Both the position numbers and the translations under genes were made by a program. Shown in pieces: positions 10,556 to 60,583 of a stretch of 64,000 nucleotides of DNA (the stretch's first letter is position 1; every line of letters starts with the position of its first letter). Below the pieces are notes generated by a model. It saw only the letters and a program-made list of their open reading frames with translations, was not told the DNA's origin and did no database searches. The stretch is from Planctomycetota bacterium (GTDB lineage Bacteria > Planctomycetota > UBA1135). The stretch covers positions 232,695 through 296,694 of the forward strand of contig QQUA01000002.1 of NCBI GenBank assembly GCA_008501825.1. Reading direction: 5' to 3'.

Positions 10556-11500
10556 TTATTGAATCGTCGTCGCCACCGTATTGGACAGGGTGCAACTGGA
10601 AAGATCCAAAGCCTGAAACCAAATTTGCAGGCCGGTCAAACCAGGAGGCACGTTGCCGGCGAACACCGCGGTTCCAGAAGCATCGGCGATCACCACGCCC
10701 AACACCACCGGGCTCAACAAATCGACGTCGAGGGTACCGCAGGAACCGGCGTTCACGCTGGTGGTTCCCAATCCGGTAACCGAGTAAGCAAAACCGACCG
10801 GCCCTTGGGCGGTACCGTTGGAGGCGGTCAAGGATCCAGGATTTCCGGACACCAAGGCGGAAGCTTGCAAATCAAAGGCCGGACCTCCGTTCGGGTCGAC
10901 CACGTCGATCAGATCGATCCAACTTGTGGGCAAGTCGGAGTTGGCCCAGCGGTTGACGAAGATGCGAACTTGGCTCAGGCTGCCGTTTCCGGGCCCGCTG
11001 GAAATGAGGGAGCCATTTCGGAACAGGCTTACATTGCCGGAGTTGTCTCGAGAATATTGATAGGAGTCGCCGGGGACGTAAGGAAACAACCCTCCTCCCC
11101 CAGGTCCGGAAACCACCGTTTCCAAATTACCCGAAGCATTCTCGAAGATGCGGATGCTGAATCCGCCGCCGCCCAGCAAAGACAAGTTGAATTCCCCTTG
11201 CTCATTGAGGACTTTCGAAAACATGATGCCGCCGAATTCGACTTCGAGGGCGCCGCTGGTTGCAGGGAAATCGCGACTCACTTCCAAGGTCGAACTCATG
11301 CTGGGATTGACCGGAGTCAATTCGAAGATCTGCAGCATGGAGTTGAATTCGGCGTAAGACCAGTCACTGGCATTGGTCATCGACGCATTCCAATCGGCGT
11401 GCAATACGCCGTCGTCGAAGTCATCGTGCAGCAGGGTCTGCTGGGCGAAGGCCGGGCAGGCCAAGGCTCCTAAAGCCAGCAAAGCGAATGAACGGTACAT
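10556..11500 (-). CDS. Secreted protein: LamG/jelly-roll-like N-terminal domain plus the shared C-terminal module
   Basis: Signal peptide MYRSFALLALGALACPAFAQQ. The mid region is Gly/Asn/Ser-rich and beta-type. The C-terminal ~105 aa is colinear with the ends of the genes at 46856-47809 and 59546-60583 (IWFQALDLSSCTLSNTVATTIQ). Confidence 0.6.
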   Translation of the reverse strand: MYRSFALLALGALACPAFAQQTLLHDDFDDGVLHADWNASMTNASDWSYAEFNSMLQIFELTPVNPSMSSTLEVSRDFPATSGALEVEFGGIMFSKVLNEQGEFNLSLLGGGGFSIRIFENASGNLETVVSGPGGGGLFPYVPGDSYQYSRDNSGNVSLFRNGSLISSGPGNGSLSQVRIFVNRWANSDLPTSWIDLIDVVDPNGGPAFDLQASALVSGNPGSLTASNGTAQGPVGFAYSVTGLGTTSVNAGSCGTLDVDLLSPVVLGVVIADASGTAVFAGNVPPGLTGLQIWFQALDLSSCTLSNTVATTIQ

Positions 11501-11634
11501 GGGTTGCTCCTCAATGGTTGGGGTTGCTATTCAGGGGTTGGGCTGATTCAGCCCTGCCCGTTGAAGAGCGAACTCCAAGACGGAGCACGGTTTCTTTGTA
11601 GAAAATCCGAAACGGAGATCTTTCCGGTAGGCGG

Positions 11635-12051
11635 CTAGAGCAGGCGATAAGTGCCGTCGCCCATGGCCTTCAGCCGGCCTTCGGAAGCCAATTTTTGCCA
11701 GATCTCCTCGGAGAAACCATTCGGCGGTTGAATGCCGGCGATGCTGGTATCCCGTCCGGAGCTGAAGGGCCCGCCGCCGATTTTGGACTCGTCATCCAAA
11801 ATCATCAGCTTCCATCGTTTCTTAAACGCCTGTAAGGCCTGGCGAGCCTTGGCTTTCTCCGGGTCGGCCTGGCTCAGCCGGTGGCACAGGGCCTCCAAGC
11901 CGTCCAAATCTTGCTCCAAGACGATGGCCTCAACCTCTTCCTCAGGCACCTGATCCGCCAATAAAAGCTCCAGAGCTTGTTCCCATAGGGCCTCCTCCTC
12001 TGGACTTTTCTTAAGTTGGCGTAACAGTTTCCGGAGTTTGTTGAGAGACAT
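11635..12051 (-). CDS. Hypothetical protein (acidic helical N-terminal half)
   Basis: 138-aa ORF with an ATG start and coherent composition. I recognise no motif. Confidence 0.45.
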   Translation of the reverse strand: MSLNKLRKLLRQLKKSPEEEALWEQALELLLADQVPEEEVEAIVLEQDLDGLEALCHRLSQADPEKAKARQALQAFKKRWKLMILDDESKIGGGPFSSGRDTSIAGIQPPNGFSEEIWQKLASEGRLKAMGDGTYRLL

Positions 12052-12113
12052 GAGCTAGCTCCAGCCTAAAGCCGCGGCCACTCCTGCGCCGTTCCTATGG
12101 CAGAATTCATGGG

Positions 12114-13925
12114 ATGCGTTTCTCCCCACTTCCCCTCATCGCCTGCGCCGGCGCCTTGGGCCTCGGCGCCCTCGCCAGCCTGGACGCGGTCCCTGAGCCC
12201 CTGGAATGGGGTCCCGGGCCGGTTCACCTGCTCCCCTTCGGCCTCATGGACGAGGTCCGGGATCCGGCCTACCAAGTGCCGATGCAGGTCCAGGCTTACC
12301 ACGAAGGCCAGGGAGGGGTTCATTTGCTGGCCCTGGAAGTCTTCGGACCCGGGGGGCAAGAGGTGGACCGCCTCGACCTTCAAGGCGAACGCCTAGAAGG
12401 CGATGACGGCCTGCTGAAGGGTTTCCACCAAATGCTGGAACGCCTGAATCCGGATATCTCCCACCGCCACCGCCAGCGCTTGTTCCTGCCGTTGAAAGAT
12501 CGGCCGAAACTGAGTCCGGAACAGGAAGGAGATCTGCTGCAACAAGTTTTGAAGGAAAGCGAGCGGCTACGGCGGCAAGGGGGCCAGCAGATATCGAACC
12601 TTAAGTTTTCCGTAGACCTGAACCGTTTGTTCCCCATGGACGCCCTGCCGGGAGACTCGGTGCCGTTGGAGATCGTGCTCCATTACGAAGACGCCCAAGG
12701 TCAATCCCAAAGCGTTCGTTACCGGCATGCCGTTCGCCTGTTGCCGCCTTTCCTCGGCCCGCCTTCAGGATGGCAAGCCGGCCGCGGCGGTGGCTTCTGG
12801 GCCACCGGCGACTTGCACGTCCACAATTGCCGCGATCAGGCTCTGTTGGGTTGCCCCAATTGCGCAGCCGAGTCCTTCAACGTCACCGGGGCTTACACCA
12901 ACGCCGATCTGAAGCCGCAGTATCAATCGTTGGGCTTCAGTTTCTTCAGCACCACGACCCACTCTTACTGCATCAATAACGATACCGAATTCCAGTTGAT
13001 TGCTTCGGAAGCGTCCAGCCTGGACGATCCCCAGTTCCAAGTGGTCCTGGGAACGGAATTGACTTGCCGGGAAACCGGGCCGCAGAGTGGCGCGGACATC
13101 AACGACGCCGTTTGCCTGTTGGGCGGAAACTTTTTCACCGGCATCAACCACATGGGCGGCCATTTCCTGCAGACTCGCAAACCCGGCGGCCAAGAAGGTT
13201 TCTTGGACAATTGTGATTCGCCCCTGTACGACCAAAGCGTCAACGTCAGTGAAGTCAATGCCGAAGGCGGTTTCACCATCGCCAACCATCCCGGTGGCGA
13301 CACTATCAGTTTCAATTCGGTCAGTTGGTTTCGCGGATTGGAAAGCGGCCAAGCCCACGGCACCGAAATCTGGAACGGAGGTCAATTCAACGCCAACTTC
13401 GATCACAAGAAGTGGTGGGTCGATCGCCTGTTGGAAGGCAAATTCACTTACCCCTACTCCGGAAGCGACACTCACGACGCCGCGTACAACTTCGGCGCCG
13501 TTCACACTTGGGTGGAGGGCGCTCTAAGCGATCAAAGCCTGAGAGATGCCCTGAAAAGCGGCCGGCACTACTTGAGTAACGGCCCCTTCCTCAGCGGGCG
13601 TTTGTTCGACAATGGCGGCCGCAGCCTGGAAATGGGTCAATACGTGATCGTGGCCGCCTCCTCGGTACCGCCGAACTACCCGGTGTCTTACGAAGTGAGC
13701 TACAACATCGGCACCGATACCGCCGACATTTACGTCTTCCGGGGCACGGTCGGGGACGCCAGTGAGGTGGAAGTTCAAGTCTTCCAAGGCTTGACCGGTT
13801 CGGGAACCGTAACCGCCGTCACCACCGTGCCGACCAACGGCTCCTCCTGGTACCGAGCGGAACTCTCAGGCGCCGGCGGCTCCCTGGCCGCTTACACCTC
13901 GCCGAGCTTCGTAGTGTTGCAGTAA
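12114..13925 (+). CDS. Exported PHP-domain (CehA/McbA-like) metal-dependent phosphoesterase
   Basis: Signal peptide MRFSPLPLIACAGALGLGALA. PHP-like metal-ligand series WATGDLHVHN, TTTHSYC, GTELTC, IANHPGG, GTEIWNG and YSGSDTHD. The C-terminal tail is beta-rich. Confidence 0.6.
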   Translation: MRFSPLPLIACAGALGLGALASLDAVPEPLEWGPGPVHLLPFGLMDEVRDPAYQVPMQVQAYHEGQGGVHLLALEVFGPGGQEVDRLDLQGERLEGDDGLLKGFHQMLERLNPDISHRHRQRLFLPLKDRPKLSPEQEGDLLQQVLKESERLRRQGGQQISNLKFSVDLNRLFPMDALPGDSVPLEIVLHYEDAQGQSQSVRYRHAVRLLPPFLGPPSGWQAGRGGGFWATGDLHVHNCRDQALLGCPNCAAESFNVTGAYTNADLKPQYQSLGFSFFSTTTHSYCINNDTEFQLIASEASSLDDPQFQVVLGTELTCRETGPQSGADINDAVCLLGGNFFTGINHMGGHFLQTRKPGGQEGFLDNCDSPLYDQSVNVSEVNAEGGFTIANHPGGDTISFNSVSWFRGLESGQAHGTEIWNGGQFNANFDHKKWWVDRLLEGKFTYPYSGSDTHDAAYNFGAVHTWVEGALSDQSLRDALKSGRHYLSNGPFLSGRLFDNGGRSLEMGQYVIVAASSVPPNYPVSYEVSYNIGTDTADIYVFRGTVGDASEVEVQVFQGLTGSGTVTAVTTVPTNGSSWYRAELSGAGGSLAAYTSPSFVVLQ

Positions 13926-13945
13926 AACCACACCACGCTTGTTGA

Positions 13946-13983
13946 AAAACCCGGTGGCTTCAGGGCCATCGGGTTTTCTTTTT
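13946..13983. terminator. Rho-independent-type bidirectional terminator
   Basis: AAAACCCGGTGGC (13946-13958), loop TTCAGG, GCCATCGGGTTTT (13965-13977). There is one G-U wobble, an A-tract upstream and the T-tract TTTTCTTTTT downstream. It lies between convergent genes. Confidence 0.6.
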
Positions 13984-15867: not shown

Positions 15868-17712
15868 TTGGCTGCTTGCGCCCTCCTGGACGCGTTCCAC
15901 CCCTTAACCCCTCTCATACCCGGAGTTCTCGTGCAGCTCGCGACCCTTTCCCTTCTCCTTTTTGGGATTTGTGCTGCCCCGCAAACAGGGCAACAAGATG
16001 CCCTTTCGACCCTGGCCCCCCTGGGGGAAAAGCCTGCCGCCACCCTGATTACCGAGGACCACGATCCTCGCCTGGTGCAGGTCAAGTTCGTCCACGACAG
16101 CGGAGTGCGTCTCCGCCAAGGCCGTTTCGTCGGCACCGGGGACGATCTGGAAGCCATCAACGGCACTTTGGACGGCCTCGGCGTCACCCGGAAACGGCTG
16201 TTCCAGCAATCGGAAAGCTGGTTGGAAAACTGGCGGCTGCAGGGGGAAGCCCGCAGCGGCATTGCGCTCCACGACCTCAACCTGTTCTTCCTGGTGGAAT
16301 TGCCCGAGGACGGCCTGGTTGGCTCGGTGTGCGATTGGTTGAACACCTTTGACATGGTGGAGCTGTCCTGGCCGGTCGGAAGGGTGGAAGACCCCAACGT
16401 GATTCCGGTCCATCTGCAGAGCAACTTCAGCACCCTGTTGCCCTCCCCCGATTTCCAGAACCTGCAAGGCTATCGGGAAGCGGCTCCCCTGGGAGTCGAC
16501 GGCGACTGGGGCAACCTGTTCAGCGGTGGCCGGGGTATCGGCACCGTGATCGCGGACGTGGAAACCGGTTGGACCGACGACCACGAAGACATCGCGCATA
16601 AGGCTTTGGGCAACTACGTCGGCCTGCCCATGACTTACTACCCGTGGGACCACGGCACCGCCGTGTTCGGCGAACTGATCGGGGAAGACAACGGGGAAGG
16701 CGTGCTGGGCTTGGTCTACGAGGCGGACGTCCTGATGTCGACCCACCAGGGCAACTCAAACAACATTCCGACCGCCATCGCCCACGCCGCCAATGCCGTC
16801 GGGGTTGGTGACGCCGTGGTTTTGGAAGTGCAGTGCTACCACGGTCCGCCCTCGCCTCACCCCTGCGAATACGACGCCGGCATTTTCGCCACCGTGCAAA
16901 CCGCCACCGCCAACGGCACCCACGTCTTCGCCGCCGCCGGCAACGGCGACAACGACCTGGATAGCGGCGCCTACGGCGGAGCCTTCGACCGCAGCGTGCG
17001 CGATTCCGGAGCGGTCATGGTCGGCGCCAGCAACGGCAGTTCCCTAGACAAGGCCGGCTTCTCCAACTACGGCAGCCGTTGCGACGCTCATGGTTGGGGA
17101 TACGACGTCACCACCGCTGGCTACGGTTACCTCTACTCCGGAGGCACCGTGCAAACCGAATACACCGACTCCTTCTCGGGGACTTCCAGTGCCACCCCGA
17201 TCGTGACCGGCGCCGGCTTGATTCTCAACGCCGTCCACCGGGAAGCCTTCGGTTCGCCGATGGATCCCTTCGTCCTGCGGGATCTGTTGACCAACACCGG
17301 TACTCCTCAGGGAGCCGGCGGCAACATCGGCCCGCGGCCTGACGTGCGCCTGGCCCTGGAACGCCTGCAAGTCCCCAAAGTCATCATCGCCGGGAATTTG
17401 GTTCCGGGCGGCAGTGGAACCGCCACGATTTACGGCCCTTCTGGCGATACCTTCCACATGATGTACTCGAAGACCTTGGCGGCGACTCCGGCCTACATGC
17501 CGCCTTACGGCTACCTTTACTTGAGCACGCCCCTCGACCGTCATGAAATTGACGTACTGCCGGCCAGCGGGCAATTCACCTATAACTTCAACATTCCCAA
17601 CAACGGCGGGTTGTCCGGAACCACGATTGGCTACGTCCAAGGTGCGGTGCTGTTCAACACCCTGCCGGGAACCGGAACCTTCACCAACTATTACCCGATC
17701 GAAGTTCAGTAG
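15868..17712 (+). CDS. Secreted S8 (subtilisin-like) serine peptidase with a C-terminal beta-sandwich module
   Basis: Catalytic triad motifs GTVIADVETGW (D230), DHGTAVFG (H262) and GTSSATPIV (S440). The track start is TTG, and an alternative GTG at 15931 precedes the hydrophobic signal segment. The C-terminal ~110 aa (17374-17709) loosely resembles the shared module. Confidence 0.85.
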   Translation: MAACALLDAFHPLTPLIPGVLVQLATLSLLLFGICAAPQTGQQDALSTLAPLGEKPAATLITEDHDPRLVQVKFVHDSGVRLRQGRFVGTGDDLEAINGTLDGLGVTRKRLFQQSESWLENWRLQGEARSGIALHDLNLFFLVELPEDGLVGSVCDWLNTFDMVELSWPVGRVEDPNVIPVHLQSNFSTLLPSPDFQNLQGYREAAPLGVDGDWGNLFSGGRGIGTVIADVETGWTDDHEDIAHKALGNYVGLPMTYYPWDHGTAVFGELIGEDNGEGVLGLVYEADVLMSTHQGNSNNIPTAIAHAANAVGVGDAVVLEVQCYHGPPSPHPCEYDAGIFATVQTATANGTHVFAAAGNGDNDLDSGAYGGAFDRSVRDSGAVMVGASNGSSLDKAGFSNYGSRCDAHGWGYDVTTAGYGYLYSGGTVQTEYTDSFSGTSSATPIVTGAGLILNAVHREAFGSPMDPFVLRDLLTNTGTPQGAGGNIGPRPDVRLALERLQVPKVIIAGNLVPGGSGTATIYGPSGDTFHMMYSKTLAATPAYMPPYGYLYLSTPLDRHEIDVLPASGQFTYNFNIPNNGGLSGTTIGYVQGAVLFNTLPGTGTFTNYYPIEVQ

Positions 17713-20417: not shown

Positions 20418-21269
20418 TTGAGCCTTCCCGCTCTGGTCGACGCCCACCTTCATCTTTGGGACCCGGAAGTTCTGCACTATTCCTGGTTGGAAAAGTTGCC
20501 GGAACTGAATCGGGCCTTTTCCATGGCCGATCTCGACCGGGAATTGCAAGGCATCGAAGTGGAAGCGGCGGTATTCGTGCAATGCGATTGTTCCGCCGAA
20601 CAAGGTGAAGCCGAAGTCGATTGGGTCACGACATTGGCCGGCGAGGATGCCCGAATTCAAGGCATCGTCGCCTTTGCTCCTTTGGAATCAGATTGCATCG
20701 AGCAACTGCGCCGCTATTGCGATCATTCCTTGGTCAAGGGCGTGCGCCGGCTTCTGCAGGACGAAGACGATCTCGATTTCATTCTCCAACCGCCCTTTCT
20801 GCCATCGCTTCGGGCTTTGGCCGATCTGGACCTCAGCTTCGATCTGTGTATCCGCCACCCGCAAATGCCGGCGGCAACGGAATTGATCCGGCAGTGCCCG
20901 GAAGTTTCCTTCGTGCTCGATCACGCCGGAAAGCCGGGGATTCGCGATCAGCTTTTGCAGCCCTGGACCGAACACTTGCGGGCCATGGCGGAACTACCGA
21001 ACGTGGTGTGCAAACTCTCCGGTTTGTTAACCGAAGCCGACCCGAATCGCTGGCGTCCGGCCGATCTTCGGCCCTATGTTCAAACGATCCTGGACAGCTT
21101 CGGCGAGAATCGGGTGCTTTACGGCGGCGACTGGCCGGTCATGCGCTTGGCCGGACGCTATCCGAATTGGCCCGCCACTTTGGATCGCCTCCTCGGCGAC
21201 CTGCCGGAGCCGGCTCGCCAGGCGATTTTTTCTGAAAACGCCCGGCGGGTTTATCGCTTGACTCCTTAA
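20418..21269 (+). CDS. Amidohydrolase-2 family protein (lactonase/decarboxylase-type metal hydrolase)
   Basis: LVDAHLHLWDP N-terminal metal motif, FVLDHAGKP and VLYGGDWPV. The TTG start lies 1 nt after the FAH stop. Confidence 0.75.
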   Translation: MSLPALVDAHLHLWDPEVLHYSWLEKLPELNRAFSMADLDRELQGIEVEAAVFVQCDCSAEQGEAEVDWVTTLAGEDARIQGIVAFAPLESDCIEQLRRYCDHSLVKGVRRLLQDEDDLDFILQPPFLPSLRALADLDLSFDLCIRHPQMPAATELIRQCPEVSFVLDHAGKPGIRDQLLQPWTEHLRAMAELPNVVCKLSGLLTEADPNRWRPADLRPYVQTILDSFGENRVLYGGDWPVMRLAGRYPNWPATLDRLLGDLPEPARQAIFSENARRVYRLTP

Positions 21270-24200: not shown

Positions 24201-24898
24201 TTCAGTTGGCGCACGCATTTGATGTGGCTGCGGTCGTCCTCGATCGCCAGCAACATGTCGTCTTCATCCCGGCCGATCATGTCCTCTTTGTCCAGCTCGC
24301 TCATGTCCCGCAGCCGCCTCCAATTGTGGACGAATTTCTGCGAGATGGCGAAACAAGAGCCACGGTGATTTGGATCTTCTTCCCCAACCATGACTCGTGC
24401 GGATAAGTTCACCGGATCGACCGGATTGATCAAAGCATCGGTAAAACGGCCGCCCAACACCCGGCCTCCCGGGCGCTTGGCCGCCAAGGTGAATTGTTTT
24501 TCATCTACCAGCTCACCGAGCTCTTGTTGGATCACTTCGAAAAGCCCTTTGCATTCGCTCGGTTCATTGGACTTGACGTGAAACCAAAGATCGCCGCCGC
24601 TTTCTTGAAAGGGCGGATGATATTCGGCCAACAGCCGAGTGGTGCCCATTCCCGCCGGGCGTTCCCATCCCAGCTCATGCCCCCACGCTTGCCACAACGG
24701 AAAGGCGACCCCGCGGATTACGACCGTTTGATAGTCCGTGGAAGCACAATAGCGATCGGTGACCTGAGCCAAGTTCAAAAACGCCTCATAGCTCTTTTTT
24801 GGCGGCGTCTTTTTCAAACTAAAGGTCCCGAAGAGACCGTATTCGGGAAAATAAGGGAGGCCGATTTGACCCAAACGAAGGCTCAGTTCTTGGCTCAT
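21266..24898 (-). CDS. Fusion protein: N-terminal DyP-type peroxidase domain plus C-terminal glycyl-radical enzyme (PFL-like)
   Basis: DyP-like landmarks in aa ~1-345: GGDLWFHVKSN, RFTDALINPVDP (GxxDG-region Asp, D154), MIGRDEDD, SHIKCVR (candidate proximal His225), RLMRQALPFG (Arg243) and GVYFAAYAKS. GRE landmarks in aa ~440-1180: Cys loop SDGCYEPIIPGK (C772, nt 22583-22585), ASADGRLMGEPIADDFSP, and the Gly-radical fingerprint LVRVRMGGWSEFFSAMFPYHQQHIMRR (G1161, nt 21416-21418). Confidence 0.85.
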   Translation of the reverse strand: MSQELSLRLGQIGLPYFPEYGLFGTFSLKKTPPKKSYEAFLNLAQVTDRYCASTDYQTVVIRGVAFPLWQAWGHELGWERPAGMGTTRLLAEYHPPFQESGGDLWFHVKSNEPSECKGLFEVIQQELGELVDEKQFTLAAKRPGGRVLGGRFTDALINPVDPVNLSARVMVGEEDPNHRGSCFAISQKFVHNWRRLRDMSELDKEDMIGRDEDDMLLAIEDDRSHIKCVRQLNEERINDRLMRQALPFGAEASNPGEEQGVYFAAYAKSSAVFDDLIQGMVGPEQGFIKDKLMNVSHSQAGNFWYVPSAKELQLPTAEGDFRIPLPEYFQVRSRNGLMFYNAKDFLYARGKQQDADDFPLSDRILHLLGDQFSRWHDGWYRKRQTPPLGHLRDHLDPDEAWILEAPVMLRKAKSVQLSLSKVLVSKSYSIKANLFLITPQEIIVGNMPQLSLGIGTQVMEYLHEDERLTAFFGNLNEYSATGHNVPDYAWVLAEGIGGLHAAYGKKMENAQDQQREFYQAVLWALEGLASFINAYADQAKRRAEELPKSEVKARENLIQIHHRLKRICWQKPEGFLDSLQLIFLINCALHQTGEPMSIGRLDQLLIDSYREDVAAGILDPASAQEIIDAFWLKMDETVLFDRKHLNDYLNYGTGAVFYSAGNFPQGAAINQWVQQLTVGGTVADNSDQPQDACNEVTMMCLRAARRLPMNAPCLSLRVHGQIGEEYLQEAAKALLSGGAHPVLLQDDKLIPALMESGPLQLADARDYASDGCYEPIIPGKTEWAFSYTPILPLVGMAMNQGATIEGAGPLHLRGLKQSWNSPPAEEIDSFEEFLEIFFTHWRWTINQFFNTLMNGYGDLAPVCPSPLFSSMVHDCLDTGRDMTDGGARYHIVAPMLCGITNTIDALYAVKKMVYDRNTAVTTLPEFLLCLQCNWGENMIEPFFNRLAGPERAAERAQRFKALRKTALQLPKFGQGQEPKLVELASQVVERCVAEVHRALQDPIPAIEEAYGKLKEKYGSKERPFAFTVTPGVGTFEDNVGLGVGMGASADGRLMGEPIADDFSPAPSPQDLPIQQDPRNIFEALQDWNLPAINFGLSNAAPVDLNIHEEFPQSELVEVLRRFAQGRLGSNLMTVTCGNTETFQGAARFPEKYDLVRVRMGGWSEFFSAMFPYHQQHIMRRPFFVAGKPAEVPEAAGRAKKAASRRIKPST

Positions 24899-31400: not shown

Positions 31401-31501
31401 GCGGGCTGCCGGTACCAAAGCTCTAGATCGGAAAAAGCGTCGCCGGCCTCCTGAGGCTGGAAGCCGGCGAGAATGAGCAAAGGGAGGAGGGAGGGGAGCA
31501 T
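28430..31501 (-). CDS. GH95 alpha-L-fucosidase with a large internal insertion
   Basis: GH95 landmarks [58 protein letters not shown] and [13 protein letters not shown]. The protein is 1023 aa, and ~245 extra residues (aa ~506-752) sit between SPENSF and TMNQQI. Confidence 0.9.
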
Positions 31502-46084: not shown

Positions 46085-46879
46085 ATGCCCCCGCTACCTC
46101 TCCTCCTCCTCAGCTTCCTTAGCTTCGCTCAGGATCCACCTTCGCCTGAAGGGGAAACGGCGAATAAACTGCCTGAACCGCGAAGCCATTATCTCGGTAG
46201 GCAAATCGCTCCCACCATGTCCTGGCATGGAGCTGGTTGGTTGACCCGAGACAGCCGTGAACGGGAGGAAGCGACCAGTCAAATGTTGAAAGCTCTGAAT
46301 GTTCAGGCCGGTTGGACTGTATGCGATTTCGGGTGCGGGAATGGATACCACACGTTGCCGTTGGCGCAACAGGTTGGGCCCAAAGGCAAAGTTTTCGCCG
46401 TCGACATCCAATCGGAAATGCTGGCGATGCTCCAGAAGAGGGCGAAACAAGCCGGAGTGCGGAACGTCCAATCCGTCTTGGCCGACTTGGCGAATCCGAA
46501 ATTGCCTCCGAACAGTTGTGACTTAATATTGATGGTCGACGTTTATCACGAGTTGGGCTATCCCGAACGAATCCTGGCAGCCTTGGCTAAAGCCCTAAAA
46601 CCTGAAGGTCGGATTGCCTTGGTTGAGTTTCGAGCGGAAGATCCGAAAGTTCCGATCAAGGCTCTACACAAAATGTCCAAGAAACAAATCCTCAAAGAAT
46701 TCGGCGCCAATCAATGGCAATTGGACCGAAGCTATGACCGCTTGCCTTGGCAACATTTGATGTTCTTTACCACCAAATCCACCAAGGCAAGCCAAACCAA
46801 GAAATCCGGCAACGACAATTCAGAATCCGATGCCGGAGATCCGAAAATCAAAGAATCAAGGCAAGGAATTTTGAACTAA
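46085..46879 (+). CDS. Class I SAM-dependent methyltransferase with an N-terminal signal peptide
   Basis: Signal MPPLPLLLLSFLSFAQD. Motif I VCDFGCGNGYHTLPLA. Also KVFAVDIQ, LILMVDVYHEL and LKPEGRIALVEF. Confidence 0.8.
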   Translation: MPPLPLLLLSFLSFAQDPPSPEGETANKLPEPRSHYLGRQIAPTMSWHGAGWLTRDSREREEATSQMLKALNVQAGWTVCDFGCGNGYHTLPLAQQVGPKGKVFAVDIQSEMLAMLQKRAKQAGVRNVQSVLADLANPKLPPNSCDLILMVDVYHELGYPERILAALAKALKPEGRIALVEFRAEDPKVPIKALHKMSKKQILKEFGANQWQLDRSYDRLPWQHLMFFTTKSTKASQTKKSGNDNSESDAGDPKIKESRQGILN

Positions 46880-47809
46880 ATTCCCCACCGTGCAAGTACT
46901 CAAATCCACGGCCTGAAAATAGAGCATTCGACCGCTCGCGGAAGCGGGAAAATACTGACTGGCCCCACCAAAACCAACCCCGTCGTTAGGGTAAATTCCG
47001 GACAAGATTGGATTTGCCAAGTCCACTTGTAATCCCTGGCAACTTTGGTTCAAAACCGTAGCTCCGGGCGCAGTGGCGTACAAAAGAGCGACCTGCCCCA
47101 TAGGAGTGGCACCGGACCACTGAATGCTGTTTTCCACTCCGGCAATACCCGGTTGCAACGTCCCAAGCTCGAAGCCGGGAACTTCCTTGTAGTAAACGGT
47201 GCCGTTCCATTGCCGATCTGGATACGTCGGCCCGGTAAACGCCGGCGTCCCCTTACCGCAGTGGGTAATTAGTTGTAAGTCGGCGTTGAAGTATTGGCCG
47301 GAACCGTTGGTGTAACGCAGTACTTGAGTATTCCGTTCGTAACTTATTAAGTCCACGTACAAGCCGTACACCTGGCCTTGAAGGAAGGTAATCCCATTTC
47401 CTTTCAGATCTACATAACTGGGTTGATCGATTCCGGCGCTCATCCCCGGATAGCGACCGAAATACAACCAAGCGGCCGCTTGGCCTTCGACTCCCTGGCT
47501 GCTTCCCAACCGGAACCAAAGTTCGATTTCAAATGGAGTCGATCCGGACACGTTTAGGTCCAAACCGGTAAGTTCCAGATCCCGCATGGGAATCAGGTCA
47601 AACATGTTGCCGGCGAAACGATTGTCGCTGGCGAAAAGGGTGGTCAAGGCCCCAGGGCCTTGTCTCGGAACCCCAACATGTCGCTGGGCTGAGACCGGAG
47701 CGCCGTCATCTCCCGAAACCGGCCCTTGTTGAGCCGGAATCCAAGCGGCGAAACTGAAACTCCAAAGGAGGAGCCATGAAATGCGATTTTGAAGGAACAT
47801 GGTGTCCAA
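46856..47809 (-). CDS. Secreted protein of unknown function carrying the shared C-terminal module
   Basis: Signal ISWLLLWSFSFAAWIPAQQ. The C-terminal ~105 aa (46859-47176) ends in MLYFQAVDLSTCTVGNLVQNSLP. The 3' end overlaps the convergent methyltransferase gene by 24 nt. Confidence 0.6.
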   Translation of the reverse strand: MDTMFLQNRISWLLLWSFSFAAWIPAQQGPVSGDDGAPVSAQRHVGVPRQGPGALTTLFASDNRFAGNMFDLIPMRDLELTGLDLNVSGSTPFEIELWFRLGSSQGVEGQAAAWLYFGRYPGMSAGIDQPSYVDLKGNGITFLQGQVYGLYVDLISYERNTQVLRYTNGSGQYFNADLQLITHCGKGTPAFTGPTYPDRQWNGTVYYKEVPGFELGTLQPGIAGVENSIQWSGATPMGQVALLYATAPGATVLNQSCQGLQVDLANPILSGIYPNDGVGFGGASQYFPASASGRMLYFQAVDLSTCTVGNLVQNSLP

Positions 47810-49671: not shown

Positions 49672-51030
49672 ATGTCCGAGGCATCCCCGCCCCCGAATTC
49701 CACCTCCAGAGGGTGGCGCCCATCTTTGAACCTGCGTCAGGGCGAAGGCGGCCTCGTCCTGCTGGGGATGCTTTACCACTTTTGTTTGTTGGCCTGCAAC
49801 TACATCTTGCGGCCGGTACGGGATGAAATCGGCTCCGCCTATCGCGAAGGTTTGGCGGAAGCGTGGACCTGGGTGTTTTTCGTCATGCTTCCGGCCGCTC
49901 CGCTATACGCCTTTTTGGTCAGCCGCTGGCCGCGGCGAGTGTTCATCCCGCTGGTCAACAGCTTTTTCTTGCTATGCCTGATCGGTTTCGCCTGGCTGCT
50001 GGAGTGGCTGCCGGAGGATTCCCGCCAACCGTTGGAATGGACCTTCTACGTATGGCACGCAGTATTCAATATGTTCATCATCACCGGATTTTGGGGTTTC
50101 ATGGTCGACCTGTTTCACCATGAACAAAGCAAGCGCCTGTTCGGCTTGCTGTTCATGGGCGGCTCGCTGGGAGGAATCGCCGGACCGCTGTTAGCCGGTC
50201 GCCTGGTCGAACCCTTCGGCCGTACCGGTTTGATGGTGGTGGCCATGGTTTTTCTGGTTGGGGCCACTTGCACCATGCTGGCCATGGATCGAACCGCCTT
50301 GTGTAGCCGGCGGCTGCACTCCTACGAGGACCAAAAAGCCCAAGGACGTCAAGCTCCCGGCGGAGGCGTATGGCAAGGATTGGCCGTGGTTTTTCGCTCT
50401 CCCTATCTATTGGGCATTTGTGGCTATCTATTCTTGCACTCCTTGCACTCGACTTTTTTGTATTTCACCAAGGCGAACATCGCTCGTGAAGCTTTCGTCG
50501 ATCGCGCCGCCCGCACCGAGTTTTATGCCAACGTAGATTTGCTGACCAACGCCCTGACCTTGTTGGCTCAGATGTTTTTGACCGCCAAGGTCTTGAAGAA
50601 AATCGGCGTCGGCTGGACCCTGGTGCTGCTCCCGCTTCTCAGCTTGATCGGCTTCGCCGCTTTGGGAACTTGGACCACCTTGGCGGTATTGGTCAGCTTC
50701 GAAGTATTAAGACGAGCCACTCATTACGGGTTGTCGAAACCGGCCCGGGAAGTTTTGTTCACCGTGGTCAGTCGGGAACAAAAGTACAAAGCCAAAGCCT
50801 TCATCGACACTGTGGTTTACCGGGGCAGCGACGTAACCAGCGCTCGCTTGTTCGAAGGCCTGCAAGCCGGTTTCGGCTTCGCTCCTCTAGCCTTGGGCTT
50901 GCAAGGAATTGCTTACTGCGCAGTCCCTTTGGCCGCCTTGTGGGCCCTCCTCGCCGCGAACTTGGGCAAACAGCAAGTTCGCCGGCAGGAACGGCTGGCC
51001 GAATCGGGAATCGCAAAGCCTCAGTCCTGA
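49672..51030 (+). CDS. Multi-pass transporter, MFS-fold / ATP:ADP-antiporter (Tlc/Npt)-family-like
   Basis: About 11-12 hydrophobic segments. The N-terminal NYILRPVRDEIG resembles the conserved N-terminal motif of Tlc-like transporters. The substrate is unknown. Confidence 0.5.
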   Translation: MSEASPPPNSTSRGWRPSLNLRQGEGGLVLLGMLYHFCLLACNYILRPVRDEIGSAYREGLAEAWTWVFFVMLPAAPLYAFLVSRWPRRVFIPLVNSFFLLCLIGFAWLLEWLPEDSRQPLEWTFYVWHAVFNMFIITGFWGFMVDLFHHEQSKRLFGLLFMGGSLGGIAGPLLAGRLVEPFGRTGLMVVAMVFLVGATCTMLAMDRTALCSRRLHSYEDQKAQGRQAPGGGVWQGLAVVFRSPYLLGICGYLFLHSLHSTFLYFTKANIAREAFVDRAARTEFYANVDLLTNALTLLAQMFLTAKVLKKIGVGWTLVLLPLLSLIGFAALGTWTTLAVLVSFEVLRRATHYGLSKPAREVLFTVVSREQKYKAKAFIDTVVYRGSDVTSARLFEGLQAGFGFAPLALGLQGIAYCAVPLAALWALLAANLGKQQVRRQERLAESGIAKPQS

Positions 51031-53582
51031 TCCAAGCTTTTCTGCCTTGGAACAAGGTTCTCAAAACTTGGCTCGACCGGCAAAGCCAGGCTAAGGGATT
51101 CCAAGCCAGCGGGCACCATCAGCCGACCTTTTGGATCGGCAGCCCCAAGGCCCTGCCAGCGCACCGCAAAGGATTCGGTAGCAGCACCGCTCCACTGCCA
51201 AAGCCCGATAGTCTCTGTTGGATGAAAGGCAAAGCTCAAGCCTTGCGGAACGCCTTCAACGATCAATTTCCCGGCGGAATCCAGAGGCAGGCCGAACTCG
51301 TTCTGAATGCGAATTTCCACCAAGCGGCCCGGCTGAAGCCGAAAACTTTGGAGATCGGAAACGGCTCCCACCGGCGGCGTCCAAAGCCGACATTGTTCGC
51401 CGTAGCCTGGGGCTCCAACATGGATCCAATGCTCCCGAGGGGCTAATTTCGAAAATTGGCACCGTTTATCCCAAAGGTTCTGCTCCAACAATAGCTTTCT
51501 CGGAGCAGGGGGGGCCGAAAGCAGGCGAACCGTTGCTCCCGGTACGCTTTCGCCGGTTTGGTCCGAAACAACTTCAACCTGAAGATCGGTTCCTGGGGGA
51601 AGCTCCAGATAAGCCCGATCCTCCCCCGCCGTGAACCGATAGCGAGGCCATGCTTGCCAAGCCCAAAGATCGACCAGGTAATCCCCCCGGCCAAGATTTT
51701 GAATGGAAAAGCTGCCATCGGGACGAATGGACCCAATTCGATCCTCACCCTGGCCATCAGCAGGCGTGGCAACGATTCCACTACGATTTTGCTGATCCAG
51801 CCTCGGGATTTGATCCCAGCCCAGAATGTTGCCCGAAATGGCCCAATCTTGCTTCACCTCCTGGCCCTGAGGCCAAATGACCGGGACCTCCAAGGAGTCA
51901 CCAAGACGAATCGGGACATCCACTTTTCCGGTCTGTCGGACTTTGCCTCGGGCCGCCAGCCAATGCCAAGAGCTTCCCGGCGGAAGGAAGAAGTCCACCC
52001 TCCCTCCGACCCCTGAGCGGCCGGTGAGCGATGTTGCTTGTTCCTCCCAGGGCCGCCGTTGCTGCCCTCGAAGCCGAGGGAGATCGAAGGATCGGTTTGC
52101 GGATAGGGCAACGACCACATCCGGAAGTGGGAACCCTGAAGCATCTCGCACCTGAAAACTCAAGCCATTCTGCTGCGGTTCTAAATCAAAAGTCCAAGGA
52201 GGAGGCCCGAGCTCTTTCAATGATTGGTTACCGAAATCACGAAAACGGCCGGAGTCGCTTTGTACCGTGAGTCGAAAACTGCGCAACAAGGATTTTGAAT
52301 CGTGAGGAATGGGAAGCCAACAAGAACCGCCATCTGAAAAACGCCGCTTGCCTTGTTGCTCCTTAGCTCGGAAATAACGCCTTTCCATCAACGTAGGCTC
52401 TTGATCCTCGTACATGTAATGCACGGGAATAAAATAGGACCACTGAATCTCGACGCTTTCTTTCAATACTTCCCCCCCAACCAATAAACGAATCTCCGTT
52501 TCACCGGCGGGCTCCATCGCCAAGGCAAATTCAGCCATCTCTCCTTCGTCGGACTTCTGGAGGCAAACCAAGGTTCGAGGAAGGTACCCATCGGCTTGAA
52601 ACTCATACAAAGGGAATTTCTTGTGTCGCGCATGGCTTGCCAGGAGCTCCGATCTAGTCGCCAAAGCCTCGAGGGAAGCCATTCCAAGATTGGCTGGAGG
52701 CCTGGATCGGACCTCCACATTGAGAATCTGTTGTCCACTTCGCCGGTCGAAGCAATGCCACCGTGGCGGCGCCGGCCAAGGCGACAAGGCGATTTGATTC
52801 CTTTGCCCTGAAGCCAGGACTTGGATTTTTTCAGTCCTTCCCCGATAGGCCGCGGTAGGCGGAATAACTAGGGTACCTGGCCCGGGAGCGGGAGCAGCCA
52901 ACTTCGCTACTCCGTCAACTCCGCTAATCCCAACGGCCACACGCGAGTCGTTCAAGGCTTCGTAAACGACTCCCACACCAGCCAAGGGCCGACCTCCCGG
53001 CAGGTCCACGAGATCCACCTGAAGAGTCAGCCCCTCCTTCAGTTCGAAATCGACCCATGCCAAGGAGGGCAATGGCGGTTCCTGCCAAACTTCAAACAAT
53101 AAGCCCGGACAGTAAGCTCGTAACCAGCCTTGCCAAGAACCCTTCGACTTGACCCATTCCTCCACTTCAGAGGATGGGATTTCCAATTGGAACCAACCTC
53201 GAGCGTCGCTTCGGGTATGCCAATGCCTTTGCCCCAGCCGGGCCTCAACGACTCCTCGGTGAATGGGCTTTCCATCCGGCCCTTTCAGAACACCCTGCCA
53301 ACCCCAGCCTTGTAAGGAAGATGCCGAGGAAGGGGATAAGATCGGTCGTCGCCGGAGCTTGACCACTTCCGCCGCGCTTGAAACCGAAACATTCGCAGTC
53401 TCGGTCATTCTTTGCAGATGATCCACTCGCTGCGAAGAAGAAATCAAATTGGAACGTGGAGCTTGAGCTTCATTCGCGTTCATAGCTCGCCAAATCCAGG
53501 CCGCCGCCCAGGACGAGACCAGGAATAATATGCCGATCCGGATAAGCCGGCCGAACTTGCTCAAACTTCCGAAATCTCTCAT
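51021..53582 (-). CDS. Single-pass membrane protein with CarboxypepD_reg-like beta-sandwich repeats (853 aa)
   Basis: N-terminal TM IRIGILFLVSSWAAAWIW. Repeat strands GVLKGPDGKPIHRGVV, LQVDLVDLPGGRPLAGVGV, LSFQVRDASGFPLPDVVV and LQVEVVSDQTGESVPGATV. There is an ATGA overlap with the upstream gene. Confidence 0.55.
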   Translation of the reverse strand: MRDFGSLSKFGRLIRIGILFLVSSWAAAWIWRAMNANEAQAPRSNLISSSQRVDHLQRMTETANVSVSSAAEVVKLRRRPILSPSSASSLQGWGWQGVLKGPDGKPIHRGVVEARLGQRHWHTRSDARGWFQLEIPSSEVEEWVKSKGSWQGWLRAYCPGLLFEVWQEPPLPSLAWVDFELKEGLTLQVDLVDLPGGRPLAGVGVVYEALNDSRVAVGISGVDGVAKLAAPAPGPGTLVIPPTAAYRGRTEKIQVLASGQRNQIALSPWPAPPRWHCFDRRSGQQILNVEVRSRPPANLGMASLEALATRSELLASHARHKKFPLYEFQADGYLPRTLVCLQKSDEGEMAEFALAMEPAGETEIRLLVGGEVLKESVEIQWSYFIPVHYMYEDQEPTLMERRYFRAKEQQGKRRFSDGGSCWLPIPHDSKSLLRSFRLTVQSDSGRFRDFGNQSLKELGPPPWTFDLEPQQNGLSFQVRDASGFPLPDVVVALSANRSFDLPRLRGQQRRPWEEQATSLTGRSGVGGRVDFFLPPGSSWHWLAARGKVRQTGKVDVPIRLGDSLEVPVIWPQGQEVKQDWAISGNILGWDQIPRLDQQNRSGIVATPADGQGEDRIGSIRPDGSFSIQNLGRGDYLVDLWAWQAWPRYRFTAGEDRAYLELPPGTDLQVEVVSDQTGESVPGATVRLLSAPPAPRKLLLEQNLWDKRCQFSKLAPREHWIHVGAPGYGEQCRLWTPPVGAVSDLQSFRLQPGRLVEIRIQNEFGLPLDSAGKLIVEGVPQGLSFAFHPTETIGLWQWSGAATESFAVRWQGLGAADPKGRLMVPAGLESLSLALPVEPSFENLVPRQKSLDQD

Positions 53583-54415
53583 GCTCCAGCTCCCGGTTCG
53601 GCGGAGGCGGAATCGACCTTGGATTCATGGTCTGTCCAATACCAAAACCACAGCACACCTTTCTGGTCGCGGGCACAGCAGAGCAGCGCCTCTTTTTTCA
53701 TCGGACCGGACTGCAAATCACCTTGCGGCAAAAATACAGCAGGCTCCCCTAACTTGAATTGGGCGAAGCCGGGAGAAACCACTTCGCAAGCTTGCAAATT
53801 CGGGTGGAAGTCCGCCTTAAGCCGCCCTTTGCAAACCAGCCATCGTGTTTGCCAAGGGGCCTGATCCCATTCCGGTTCCCGAGCGCCTTTGGGCTGAATT
53901 CTTCGAGTGCGGAGGCGGACCTCGCCAGTCCCCTTTGAGGCGGGAAGCGGTACAAAGGCGGCTTCCCCAGTAATCGGATCGAGACGAAAAGCAAGCCGGC
54001 GATCCGCCGGCATGTAAGCCCGATCGGCATTAGGAACGGCTTCTGATTGTCCTTGAAAGGACTCATTCAAACTCGAGCAATAGCTCAAAAACTGGCTCAG
54101 GGCCTGTTCTTCCAACCAGAGAACATCTTCCTGAACTCGTTTTCTCCTTAGTTGAATCCGCCCCTCCGAATTCCGATGGATGGCCGTGGTTTCTGAAGCT
54201 CCGACGGTAAACCACTGAAGGGGAATCTCAAGCTTTTCGCGCCTCAGCTGGAAGAGGAGCTCCACCTGGGTTCCTTTCGAAAATGGTTTCAAAGAAGCGA
54301 AGGTCTCTGCTCGAAAAACCCAAGCAAGTAAAGCAACCAATAGGACTGTAGAGCCAATCCATGAAAACCGGAAAGAAGACCTAAAAGTCTCTTTAGCCTC
54401 GGAAGCAATTTCCAT
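53579..54415 (-). CDS. Hypothetical single-pass membrane protein
   Basis: TM segment IGSTVLLVALLAWVF. I recognise no motif. The start is ambiguous (ATGs at 54442, 54433 and 54415); 54415 lies 8 nt after the upstream stop. Confidence 0.45.
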   Translation of the reverse strand: MEIASEAKETFRSSFRFSWIGSTVLLVALLAWVFRAETFASLKPFSKGTQVELLFQLRREKLEIPLQWFTVGASETTAIHRNSEGRIQLRRKRVQEDVLWLEEQALSQFLSYCSSLNESFQGQSEAVPNADRAYMPADRRLAFRLDPITGEAAFVPLPASKGTGEVRLRTRRIQPKGAREPEWDQAPWQTRWLVCKGRLKADFHPNLQACEVVSPGFAQFKLGEPAVFLPQGDLQSGPMKKEALLCCARDQKGVLWFWYWTDHESKVDSASAEPGAGA

Positions 54416-54423
54416 CGGAAAAC

Positions 54424-54840
54424 CTAAGGGCATTTGCACCATTGAAAACTGTGGCCGTGATACCCCCCTTGGCAAGTGGATCCACAGTTGAAGTTGCTGC
54501 ACACCAGAAGCCCAATTCCATTCTCTTCGACGTAATAACCGTCACACTCTTGGCCGCTGCCCGGATGTCCGCACACATCACACCAATAGTAGGTCCCTCC
54601 TTCATCGTCCACGTCGGTGTAAACCGAACCCGAGTTACAAGTTTCCGGGACCGGGCAAAGCCCGAAACAATATGGGTTTCCCAAATCTGGAATTTTCAGC
54701 TTACAGCCGATGTAGAGAGCCGAGCCAGTGAATCGCCCATCGGGATCGTAATCCGAACTCTCGGAAGTCCGAAGACCCGGACCCAACCAACCAAGTAGGA
54801 AAGTGAGAACTACCAAAGACAAGCCAGGAAAAGTAGCCAT
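54424..54840 (-). CDS. Secreted cysteine-rich miniprotein (12 Cys in a ~110-aa mature region)
   Basis: Signal-like LSLVVLTFLLGWLGPGL. Cys clusters CKLK, CFGLCPVPETC, CDVCGHPGSGQEC, CSNFNCGSTC and CKCP. GGAAG lies upstream of the ATG. Confidence 0.55.
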   Translation of the reverse strand: MATFPGLSLVVLTFLLGWLGPGLRTSESSDYDPDGRFTGSALYIGCKLKIPDLGNPYCFGLCPVPETCNSGSVYTDVDDEGGTYYWCDVCGHPGSGQECDGYYVEENGIGLLVCSNFNCGSTCQGGYHGHSFQWCKCP

Positions 54841-56436: not shown

Positions 56437-56439
56437 CGC

Positions 56440-58128: not shown

Positions 58129-58210
58129 AGGCGGGCGGGGTCAGAGAGGCTCCGGCAGCAAATGCCGTTTGCAGGATCCTACGCCCTGCGCCAAAAGCGG
58201 ACTCCGGGAT

Positions 58211-58609: not shown

Positions 58610-58619
58610 AGCTACCAAT

Positions 58620-59333
58620 CTACCGCAAACAACGCCAAAGCCAGGCCTGAACCCTGGCAAGAACCGTACGCGGCCGTTCCATCGGACTGAAATGGCCGCA
58701 TTCCGGCAGAATGTGGCATTCAGCTCCGGTCAAAGCGGAAGCCATCGCCCGGCTGCAATCCGGCGGCGTCACTTGGTCTTGTTGCCCGCACAGCACCAGG
58801 GCCGGAGCTTGAATCCGATCAAGATGAGGCCGCCAATCCCGGCGCAAGAGCATGGCCTTTTGCTGTTGCAAAAAGGTCTGGAAGCCGTTTCGAAGCAGCA
58901 TGCTGCGGAGGCTTTCTCGGAGCTCCTCCCGTTTCAGGTGCCGGGGGTGCAAAAACCGCGGCAGCATTGCTTCCACGATGTCTTCGAAATCCTCCCCTCG
59001 AGCTTGGTGAAGCCAGGTTTCCCGCTGCCGCCGCTCCTCCGCTCGATCCGGTCCGGCTCGAGTGGACAGCAAAGCCAATCCGCCCAAGCGCTGGGGAGCG
59101 CGACAAGCCATTTCCAAAGCCAGATAACCACCGAAGGAAAAGCCGACCAGGAGGAAGCGGTCGGGCAGCCGGTTCAAAAGTCGATCGGCCAGTTGCGGCA
59201 GGCTTTGATTGCACTCCCAGGACGGCAGCGTTTCGACTTCGGCGTACTCCTCCAGCCCCGGGCGCAAGCCCTGCCAAAGCGCCCGGTCGCAAAGCAGGCC
59301 GGGCAGAAGCAACATGGGTAGGGCGGCTTCCAT
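58620..59333 (-). CDS. Alpha/beta-fold hydrolase
   Basis: Nucleophile elbow LVGFSFGGYLALE and C-terminal ECGHFSPMERP. ATG 59333 or 59315 is the probable start. Confidence 0.7.
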   Translation of the reverse strand: MEAALPMLLLPGLLCDRALWQGLRPGLEEYAEVETLPSWECNQSLPQLADRLLNRLPDRFLLVGFSFGGYLALEMACRAPQRLGGLALLSTRAGPDRAEERRQRETWLHQARGEDFEDIVEAMLPRFLHPRHLKREELRESLRSMLLRNGFQTFLQQQKAMLLRRDWRPHLDRIQAPALVLCGQQDQVTPPDCSRAMASALTGAECHILPECGHFSPMERPRTVLARVQAWLWRCLR

Positions 59334-59545
59334 GTGCGCAGGAGAAACCCGAAACGGCCTGAATTCCCTAATTCCTGGACCGACGACCGGCCAGGGCCGG
59401 AGGGCGGCCGGAAACATCCGCTCCTGGAATCCAGACCTTGCCTTCGGGATTTCAGCATTTATGGCTTAAAATTGAATCACTCCCCTGGCTGGAAAGCCAG
59501 AATCCCCAAACCGCGGACCCTTCCCCGTCCGCCCAAAGGAAAACC

Positions 59546-60583
59546 ATGCTCCGGATCCGATCCCTTTTCCTGGCAGGTCTTTGCACTCTTGGCCTAAGCC
59601 CCGGCCTGACTTCACAGGAATACCTGACCATTGCCTACGAATCGTTCGACTATGCCGCAGGCCCGTTGCAGGACATGAATGGCGGCCTCGGCTGGGCGGT
59701 GGATTGGTGGTCCGGCGACCTGGGCGATCACGCCATGGTGACCGACCCGGGTTTTGACGGCGTCGGCTTGAAAGCCACCACCCAAATCGAACACGGCGGC
59801 AGCTATCGGACGCTGGACAACGCTGGTTTCGACCCGATTTTGGACGCCGGCCGCTTCGGCCTCGATGGAACCGAAATCTGGCTCAGCTTTGAATGCGAGC
59901 GGGACCTTTTCAGCGACGATTGGTACGGCGGCATTTCTCTTTACGAGCAGTGGGTCGGAGAAAAACTGTTCGTCGGCAGCCCCTGGGGCGGTGACGAATG
60001 GGGTTTGGACCTACCCTTCGTCCTGTTCCCCGGCGTGGTGATCGGCACCAACTGCTCGGTGAAGGCCACCTTGTGGATGCAGGTCCGTTTCCTGCCCGGA
60101 GACGAGGAAGTCAATTTGTGGGTGGATCCGGCGACCGATTACCCCACCACCACTCCCGACGTGCAGATGTTCTTCCCGGACTTCCGCTTCAATGAAATCC
60201 GCCTGCAATCGGGAAGTGGAGTCACCACCGGGTTCCATTTCGACAACATTTCCATCACCACCCCGAACTTCCGTCCGGTCTTGGCGGTGTCCAATCTGAT
60301 CGGCGGGCAGGTGGCGGATTTCAACCTGTCGAACTTCACCCCGAACAGCACCGCCTACTTGATCTACTCGCCGTTCGGCCCGGGACCGACCCAGACCGCC
60401 TACGGCACCATGGACCTGACCATGCCGGTCACCGTCCTGCCCCAGTTGACCACCGACGCCAACGGCGACGCCCTGCTCCAGGCTCCGGTTCCGCCTTCGG
60501 CCACCGGCCGCACCCTGTGGTTCCAAGCCCTGGATTTCGCCCAGCCGATGTTCAGCAATATGGTGGAACAAGTCGTCGGCTAA
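59546..60583 (+). CDS. Secreted LamG/jelly-roll-like protein carrying the shared C-terminal module
   Basis: Signal MLRIRSLFLAGLCTLGLSPGLTSQ. The N-terminal domain has GGLGWAVDWW, GGSYRTL, TEIWLSF and YGGISLYE (LamG-like pattern). The C-terminal 60269-60580 ends in TLWFQALDFAQPMFSNMVEQVVG. Confidence 0.65.
   Translation: MLRIRSLFLAGLCTLGLSPGLTSQEYLTIAYESFDYAAGPLQDMNGGLGWAVDWWSGDLGDHAMVTDPGFDGVGLKATTQIEHGGSYRTLDNAGFDPILDAGRFGLDGTEIWLSFECERDLFSDDWYGGISLYEQWVGEKLFVGSPWGGDEWGLDLPFVLFPGVVIGTNCSVKATLWMQVRFLPGDEEVNLWVDPATDYPTTTPDVQMFFPDFRFNEIRLQSGSGVTTGFHFDNISITTPNFRPVLAVSNLIGGQVADFNLSNFTPNSTAYLIYSPFGPGPTQTAYGTMDLTMPVTVLPQLTTDANGDALLQAPVPPSATGRTLWFQALDFAQPMFSNMVEQVVG

Follow-up and report, generated by a model that had tools for sequence, protein, structure and literature searches.

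A conserved domain fixed at the C terminus of diverse signal-peptide-like proteins in Planctomycetota: a candidate surface-attachment module

The C-terminal domain (CTD) of cargo of the type IX secretion system (T9SS) is an immunoglobulin (Ig)-like beta sandwich (PMC4804311). Its type A (TIGR04183/PF18962, Por_Secre_tail) and type B (TIGR04131) are folded sandwiches of about 70-100 amino acids, present in one copy and never internal or N-terminal, on cargo with signal peptides and very diverse passengers, encoded by many dispersed genes per genome. The machinery of the system comprises SprA/Sov, PorV, PorU and PorK-N, with PorU removing the CTD. To our knowledge, the T9SS has not been described in Planctomycetota or Thermodesulfobacteriota. 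Here we describe a module of about 105 residues borne by three proteins, encoded by genes A, B and C, in a 64-kb stretch of DNA from a Planctomycetota bacterium (contig QQUA01000002.1; this whole stretch is called the window). The module is conserved and is tied to the very C terminus of diverse signal-peptide-like proteins, and its predicted Ig-like sandwich in that place is a T9SS-like trait, to be taken as resemblance and not as homology. It differs from the T9SS CTD in having nine predicted strands instead of seven, a conserved cysteine pair (a putative disulfide), and tandem and occasional N-terminal copies. Membership in the T9SS CTD families was rejected, as TIGR04183, TIGR04131, PF18962 and PF13585 matched none of the three window proteins or 78 isolated modules at E≤1 and were absent from the families listed for 113 homologues.

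The same architectural place is occupied by the short tripartite signals of the PEP-CTERM/exosortase, LPXTG/sortase, MYXO-CTERM/myxosortase and GlyGly-CTERM/rhombosortase systems, which have passenger families in common with the module (HAF repeat, choice-of-anchor domains, DUF4394 and TSP3). These signals consist of a motif, a transmembrane helix and a basic tail within some 25-35 amino acids, whereas the module is a soluble beta domain of 105. Its copies end in polar strands and no NCBIfam signal model matched the three window proteins, so that it was rejected as a member of these families as well. Models named after anchors do occur among the 113 homologues (MtsC in two, ScyF in one and RbtA in one); they describe passengers and none covers the module. 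Dockerin, SLH, LysM and WxL modules are likewise add-ons to many unrelated secreted passengers, mostly C-terminal, sometimes N-terminal and sometimes in two or three repeats; the module shows no Pfam match or fold kinship to them (WxL appeared once, at an E-value of 0.12, which is noise), and its preference for one position exceeds what is common among them. By analogy, it may work most like a T9SS CTD or a dockerin/SLH-type anchoring module, being a member of none of these families.

Three homologous tails in one window

The tails of the three proteins are homologous copies of one domain. In an all-against-all blastp comparison, the tails of A and C aligned with 55 bits over 120 amino acids, those of A and B with 50 bits over 97, and those of B and C with 30 bits, and no mutual similarity was detected upstream of the tails. 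Against a profile hidden Markov model (HMM) of 177 family copies, copies A, B and C scored 120, 106 and 93 bits, respectively, the aligned portion of copy A being 10559-10870. Chance similarity is ruled out by these scores. In the translations, the chain ends in each case exactly 15 residues past the Asp of the motif (W/Y)FQA(L/V)D, and the last residues (...SNTVATTIQ, ...GNLVQNSLP and ...SNMVEQVVG) form a polar beta strand with no terminal hydrophobic helix. When all six reading frames of the window were scanned with a three-sequence HMM and, later, with the 177-copy HMM, no further significant copy was found in the open reading frames (ORFs).

The N termini of the three proteins, judged by eye from the translations, are basic, then hydrophobic, and run through a small-residue motif into Gln (...CPAFA followed by QQ, ...AWIPA followed by QQ and ...SPGLTS followed by QE), and thus look like Sec signal peptides. 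In gene C, translation from the ATG at 59546 places this segment at the N terminus, and for gene B the public annotation of this contig, which belongs to a bioreactor metagenome, uses the ATG at 47800 as start codon and not the TTG at 47809. An exact look-up of gene A gave no record. The colinear tails, their fixed distance from the Asp, the ORFs (apart from the public start of gene B) and the signal-peptide-like N termini had all been reported in a preliminary description of this DNA, and all stand. The same description had labelled passengers as LamG-like jelly rolls; this label is unverified, since A, B and C gave no match at E≤1 in Pfam-A or NCBIfam, and their passengers gave none at E≤1 among sequences of the PDB. 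The product of gene A is identical to a library protein (P0001), and its closest homologue is a hypothetical protein (P0005) from a metagenome-assembled genome (MAG) of Planctomycetota.

Size, position and predicted fold of the family

In an exhaustive search of 1.84 billion cluster representatives with the profile of the three tails, 2,796 proteins were recovered at E≤1e-3, 370 at E≤1e-10 and 4 at E≤1e-30, the top two matches being the window's own proteins A and B. Word-indexed searches recovered far less: the three-tail alignment gave no match, and a 78-tail alignment gave one protein. A metagenome scan with the small alignment gave one contig of 1.9 kb. The module is a real, sizeable family without a Pfam or NCBIfam model. 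Among 113 full-length relatives compared with Pfam-A and NCBIfam, no domain family was common to more than seven, and the families in common are all passenger domains. The scan of 78 isolated modules against domain models at E≤1 returned scattered noise, with MG4 (0.0041, one module) and Big_6 (0.013, two of the 78) as the best values. Membership in any Pfam Ig-like, Big or carbohydrate-binding module (CBM) family was thus rejected, because no curated model covers the module, and a search of the literature found no description of it.

The position of the module was counted in the best 150 of the 2,796 representatives, re-scanned locally. The chain ends at the last position of the model in 113 of these 150 and within -3 to +2 residues of it in 145, whereas uniform placement would put only about 1.8% within 3 residues of the terminus. 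The C-terminal enrichment proposed from three proteins thus extends to the family, with four exceptions to a strictly terminal placement: in P0133, P0112 and P0100 the module lies directly behind the signal peptide with other domains downstream, and in P0067 it is internal. The internal copies retain QAxD...C..SN without a free C terminus. P0112 and P0067 have a downstream domain in common (...KVALVCEPP...GKLHLVDLD...).

A single copy is present in 125 of the 150 representatives, two copies in 19 and three in 6, the tandem copies being about 3 residues apart with the last one at the terminus. The tandem sub-family of two to three copies (P0003, P0006, P0007, P0012, P0029, P0030, P0033 and others) has a consensus of its own, ...LLPLDPG.AG..NT..A..ATPNGDV.FIYGF...IC.G...GI.NPR.... 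The median protein length is 330 amino acids. A hydrophobic segment lies at the N terminus of 105 of the 122 full-length members; only 6 of the 122 are lipoprotein-like. The 25 residues upstream of the module are of ordinary composition, with no Pro/Ser/Thr linker, so that the module abuts its passenger.

The family consensus reads ...ATPgG.V.faYS..G.GPT.....CG.l.vdLs.P....l.....AD.sG.As.s..VP....G..vw.QA.D...C..SN., in which G, P, G, Q, two C and N are nearly invariant, and the most conserved residues (QAxD, C and SN) are located in the last two strands. Both cysteines (profile positions 51 and 100) occur in 147 of the 177 copies, neither in 27 and just one in 3; copies A and B have the pair and copy C belongs to the class with neither. 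That the two occur or are missing together suggests a disulfide, which in turn would point to folding outside the cytoplasm.

In homologue pairs the module is more strongly conserved than the passenger: A and P0005 are 71% identical over the module and 33% over the passenger, and with three other homologues of A the respective values are 41-46% and 26%.

From three sequences, AlphaFold2 modelled copy A as a nine-strand all-beta domain with a predicted local distance difference test (pLDDT) value of 91.8 and a predicted template modelling score (pTM) of 0.81, so that an Ig-like nine-strand beta sandwich is predicted. A search of the PDB with Foldseek gave generic Ig-like sandwiches, with a best E-value of 5e-3 and template modelling (TM) scores of at most 0.64; they include the Nir2 CTD, neocarzinostatin, macromomycin, a beta-glucan-recognition domain (3aqx, TM 0.54) and antibody V domains. 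The resemblance of the predicted fold to known structures in the Foldseek and profile searches is thus weak and generic.

The nearest solved structures are the neocarzinostatin and actinoxanthin apoproteins, which are small disulfide-containing Ig-like sandwiches. In a profile search of PDB sequences the neocarzinostatin match was marginal (E 8.6e-4) and covered only positions 12-84 of 107, including the ...C....D...TADAxGxAS... stretch, and in Foldseek it reached E-values of about 0.02-0.03 and TM scores of 0.5-0.58. Neocarzinostatin has no counterpart to the final third of the module (QAxD...C..SN) and has the second cysteine of the pair at another place, and the neocarzinostatin family (PF00960) has two local disulfides as against the long-range pair at positions 51 and 100. 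Neocarzinostatins are, moreover, free-standing chromophore carriers and not C-terminal modules, and the Pfam model Neocarzinostat matched neither the window proteins nor the 78 isolated modules.

A fold so generic, with such weak nearest structures (Foldseek E 5e-3 and TM≤0.64; neocarzinostatin E 8.6e-4), together with beads-on-a-string tandem arrays and a module that abuts its passenger without a linker, would suit a structural cap, stalk or spacer that has no targeting role and was spread by domain shuffling, its C-terminal place following from the ease with which shuffled domains are added there. We regard this explanation as quite unlikely, since terminal placement in 97% of cases, with passengers from dozens of unrelated families, would hardly arise without selection, conservation is clearly higher in the module than in its passengers, and the conserved polar Q, D, S and N of the last strands suggest an interaction surface.

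Passengers, distribution and possible role of the module

The passengers identified in the 113 full-length relatives are highly varied. They comprise propellers (FG-GAP, Kelch and PD40), HAF repeat/DUF3466, DUF4394, plastocyanin/halocyanin-type cupredoxins, C-type lectin, TSP3, CotH, ThuA, a GlxA-like radical copper oxidase, Peptidase_S8, InlB B-repeat, LTD, DNRLRE and XAC2610-related domains, as well as the anchor-associated choice-of-anchor Q and J and NxxGxxAF domains. According to NCBIfam and TIGRFAM descriptions, proteins with choice-of-anchor, HAF-repeat or DUF4394 domains end elsewhere in PEP-CTERM, T9SS, LPXTG or similar tails; NxxGxxAF, cupredoxin, TSP3 and C-type lectin passengers are likewise of surface type and have other anchors elsewhere. 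Because these passenger families carry anchors elsewhere, the module takes the place of an anchor in the protein architecture. A genome-collection scan with a narrow back-translated pattern yielded three further loci (L001, L002 and L003) in Planctomycetota MAGs, in each of which the chain ends 15 residues past WFQALD; in L001 and L002 the module is attached to large proteins that appear beta-helix/cadherin-like by eye, and in L003 to a protein with the zinc-protease motif HELGHNMGCAHD.

Names and taxa of family members were obtained from 30 cluster look-ups, and the clusters that carried an organism name were all from MAGs, either of Planctomycetota (DWQ01 with three proteins, MEM7310325 and MHC4540800) or of Thermodesulfobacteriota (clusters P0012 and P0010), the members from the latter phylum being of the multi-copy type. 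The module had been proposed to be specific to its lineage; Planctomycetota are indeed represented, but the Thermodesulfobacteriota members show that its range is not narrow. Most members are labelled 'hypothetical protein', and some in the Thermodesulfobacteriota clusters 'LamG domain-containing'. Several copies occur per genome, as seen from the three in the 64-kb window and the three named proteins of the DWQ01 MAG; in addition, P0003 and P0030, whose longest contigs are equal in length (300,687 nt), are probably encoded on one contig, and so are, probably, P0021 and P0034 (570,646 nt). Genes A, B and C are dispersed among unrelated housekeeping genes. Their neighbours in the window and those of the copies in L001-L003 include no secretion, protease or sortase-like partner and no common family, and none of the neighbours annotated across the 64 kb of the window and about 10 kb of flanking sequence is a secretion component.

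On these grounds, the preferred reading is that the module is an extracytoplasmic Ig-like attachment (address) domain that holds its passengers at the cell surface, a tentative proposal to which we assign a probability of roughly 0.42. A carrier would cross the inner membrane by means of its N-terminal Sec-type signal peptide; the module would then fold in the periplasm or extracellularly, in most cases held together by a single disulfide, and would attach by non-covalent binding to some constituent of the envelope or of the extracellular matrix, keeping proteases, cupredoxins, lectin-like proteins, propellers and other passengers at the cell surface. Tandem copies would raise avidity. This reading is favoured because of the passenger spectrum, the slower evolution of the module, its tandem copies and its occasional N-terminal position, and the covariation of the cysteine pair fits an oxidising extracytoplasmic location.

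Several observations weigh against an attachment domain. The sequence of the module was absent from metatranscriptome runs of the same sample. Aromatic residues make up 6% of the module, which has no exposed-aromatic signature of the kind typical of CBMs. Finally, C-terminal placement in 97% of cases, with the chain ending right past the last strand, is stricter than in most binding modules and resembles what a terminal export tag would show.

According to such an export-tag explanation, the module would be a functional analogue of the T9SS CTD, recognised in its folded state by a dedicated outer-membrane translocon or sortase-like enzyme; the passenger would be moved across the outer membrane, and the module removed or the protein linked to the surface. 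In line with this, 97% of the best 150 representatives have the module at their very C-terminal end and 75% stop exactly at the model end; also in agreement are the presence of one copy in 125 of the 150, the great diversity of passengers, which include choice-of-anchor-type families and proteases such as the L003 metalloprotease, and the many copies per genome, scattered like T9SS or PEP-CTERM cargo genes. The conservation of QAxD, C and SN also peaks in the last two strands, and the T9SS CTD is itself an Ig-like sandwich (PMC4804311). This explanation is nonetheless somewhat unlikely, as 25 of the 150 representatives have tandem copies and four have N-terminal or internal ones, the internal copies keep the motifs without a free C terminus, no T9SS CTD or other sorting-signal model was matched, no candidate machinery was found in the window or in the L001-L003 loci, and the residues upstream of the module do not have the flexible linker composition that would suggest a cleavage site. 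Tandem, N-terminal and internal copies are therefore more easily reconciled with a module for binding or attachment than with a strict export signal that is cleaved off. Of the sorting or anchoring tag first proposed for this lineage, the C-terminal module and its diverse passengers are upheld, and the tandem and non-terminal copies speak against a strictly terminal sorting signal.

More specifically, the module might be a functional counterpart of the T9SS CTD that is recognised by a pathway for outer-membrane export or surface attachment in Planctomycetota and some Thermodesulfobacteriota, with a translocon or processing enzyme of its own. This is in our judgement unlikely; if it were true, the proteins bearing the module would define the cargo of that pathway.

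The gene content of the window (GH127, GH29 with CBM6, GH95, FG-GAP, an ECF sigma factor and a Ser/Thr kinase) looks like that of a polysaccharide-degrading planctomycete-like organism, and in such a setting the module might be a CBM-like domain that targets passengers to an external polymer, such as an algal or biofilm polysaccharide, instead of the producer's own surface. Tandem copies and variable position are known in CBMs, and a beta-glucan-recognition domain is among the weak Foldseek matches (3aqx, TM 0.54). We consider this highly improbable, given that the families of the 113 members comprise almost no glycoside hydrolase, with cupredoxins, propellers, lectins and proteases in their place, that the glycoside hydrolases of the window are without the module, and that the module has no conserved aromatic platform.

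How proteins of Planctomycetota are placed on or beyond the outer membrane is poorly understood, and the module offers a sequence handle on this question. It marks thousands of signal-peptide-like proteins with unrelated passengers, which are a candidate surface or secreted proteome, and its profile can be used for a genome-wide census and for phylogenetic profiling. As a small domain with a confident fold prediction, it is suited to expression, crystallisation, pull-downs and reporter fusions. A curated model would be deserved even if the module were a mere attachment domain, since most of the carriers sampled are now called 'hypothetical protein'.

Coordinates and other features of the window

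The coordinates of the carrier genes, of their modules and of a candidate fourth copy are given in Table 1.

Table 1. Carrier genes, module copies and the candidate fourth copy in the 64-kb window.
Feature	Coordinates	Strand	Description
Gene A	10556..11500	(-)	314 amino acids; signal-peptide-like N terminus (MYRSFALLALGALACPAFA, then QQ), passenger of ~200 amino acids, C-terminal module
Module copy A	10559..10885	(-)	~105-109 amino acids; Cys pair; WFQALDLSSCTLSNTVATTIQ, then stop codon
Gene B	46856..47809	(-)	314 amino acids from ATG 47800, 317 from TTG 47809; signal-peptide-like N terminus, passenger without Pfam/NCBIfam match, C-terminal module
Module copy B	46859..47179	(-)	Cys pair; YFQAVDLSTCTVGNLVQNSLP, then stop codon
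Gene C	59546..60583	(+)	345 amino acids from ATG 59546, TTG 59438 a possible earlier start; signal-peptide-like N terminus, passenger without Pfam/NCBIfam match, C-terminal module
Module copy C	60266..60580	(+)	both cysteines lost; WFQALDFAQPMFSNMVEQVVG, then stop codon
S8 peptidase C-terminal tail	17374..17709	(+)	gene 15868-17712; at most a highly divergent candidate copy

The tail of the S8 peptidase had been put forward as a more divergent fourth member. In this protein the Peptidase_S8 domain spans residues 225-479 and is followed by about 135 residues. When tested alone, as a single pre-specified target, the tail scored 8.7 bits and was colinear with model positions 14-95, a score reached by none of 2000 shuffles (top shuffle 5.2), and its end, TNYYPIEVQ, aligns with SNTVATTIQ, both having an Asn seven residues before the end. 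It is without QAxD and without both cysteines. A blastp comparison with the three tails gave nothing, the whole ORF scored 4.6 bits (E 1.6) against the 177-copy profile, which is under the scores of two non-coding frames, and hhalign gave a probability of 3.9% against the family. A word-indexed homology search with the tail returned no homologues, and its single-sequence AlphaFold2 model (pLDDT 32) is unusable. From its colinearity, the tail is possibly a very divergent copy of the module, although the blastp, whole-ORF and hhalign comparisons do not bear out its membership.

Some other features of the window may be recorded. Between gene A and the S8 peptidase lies an ORF of 603 amino acids (12114-13925, (+)) with a signal-peptide-like N terminus and no Pfam match. 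The 3' ends of gene B and of a convergent methyltransferase gene (46085-46879, (+)) overlap by 24 nucleotides (46856-46879). Just upstream of this methyltransferase and gene B, a basic ORF of 335 amino acids (45036-46043, (+)) has a Cys-rich N terminus (CPRNDCPS...CKACNRSF) and no Pfam match, and may encode a transposase-like or zinc-finger protein. On the (-) strand at 51021-54502, two ORFs of 853 and 307 amino acids overlap by 4 nucleotides and probably form one operon, their matches being limited to a weak CarboxypepD_reg-like beta-sandwich.

Glycoside hydrolases are encoded at 135-7420 and 28430-31501 and comprise GH127, a GH29 alpha-L-fucosidase with a 3-keto-disaccharide-hydrolase-like domain and a CBM6, and GH95; the set is aimed at fucose- and arabinofuranose-containing glycans, and none of its members has the module. 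An ORF of 1210 amino acids (21266-24898, (-)) combines a Dyp-type peroxidase C-terminal domain (152-310) with a pyruvate-formate-lyase-like domain (469-997) of the glycyl-radical-enzyme type, a fusion that looks unusual.

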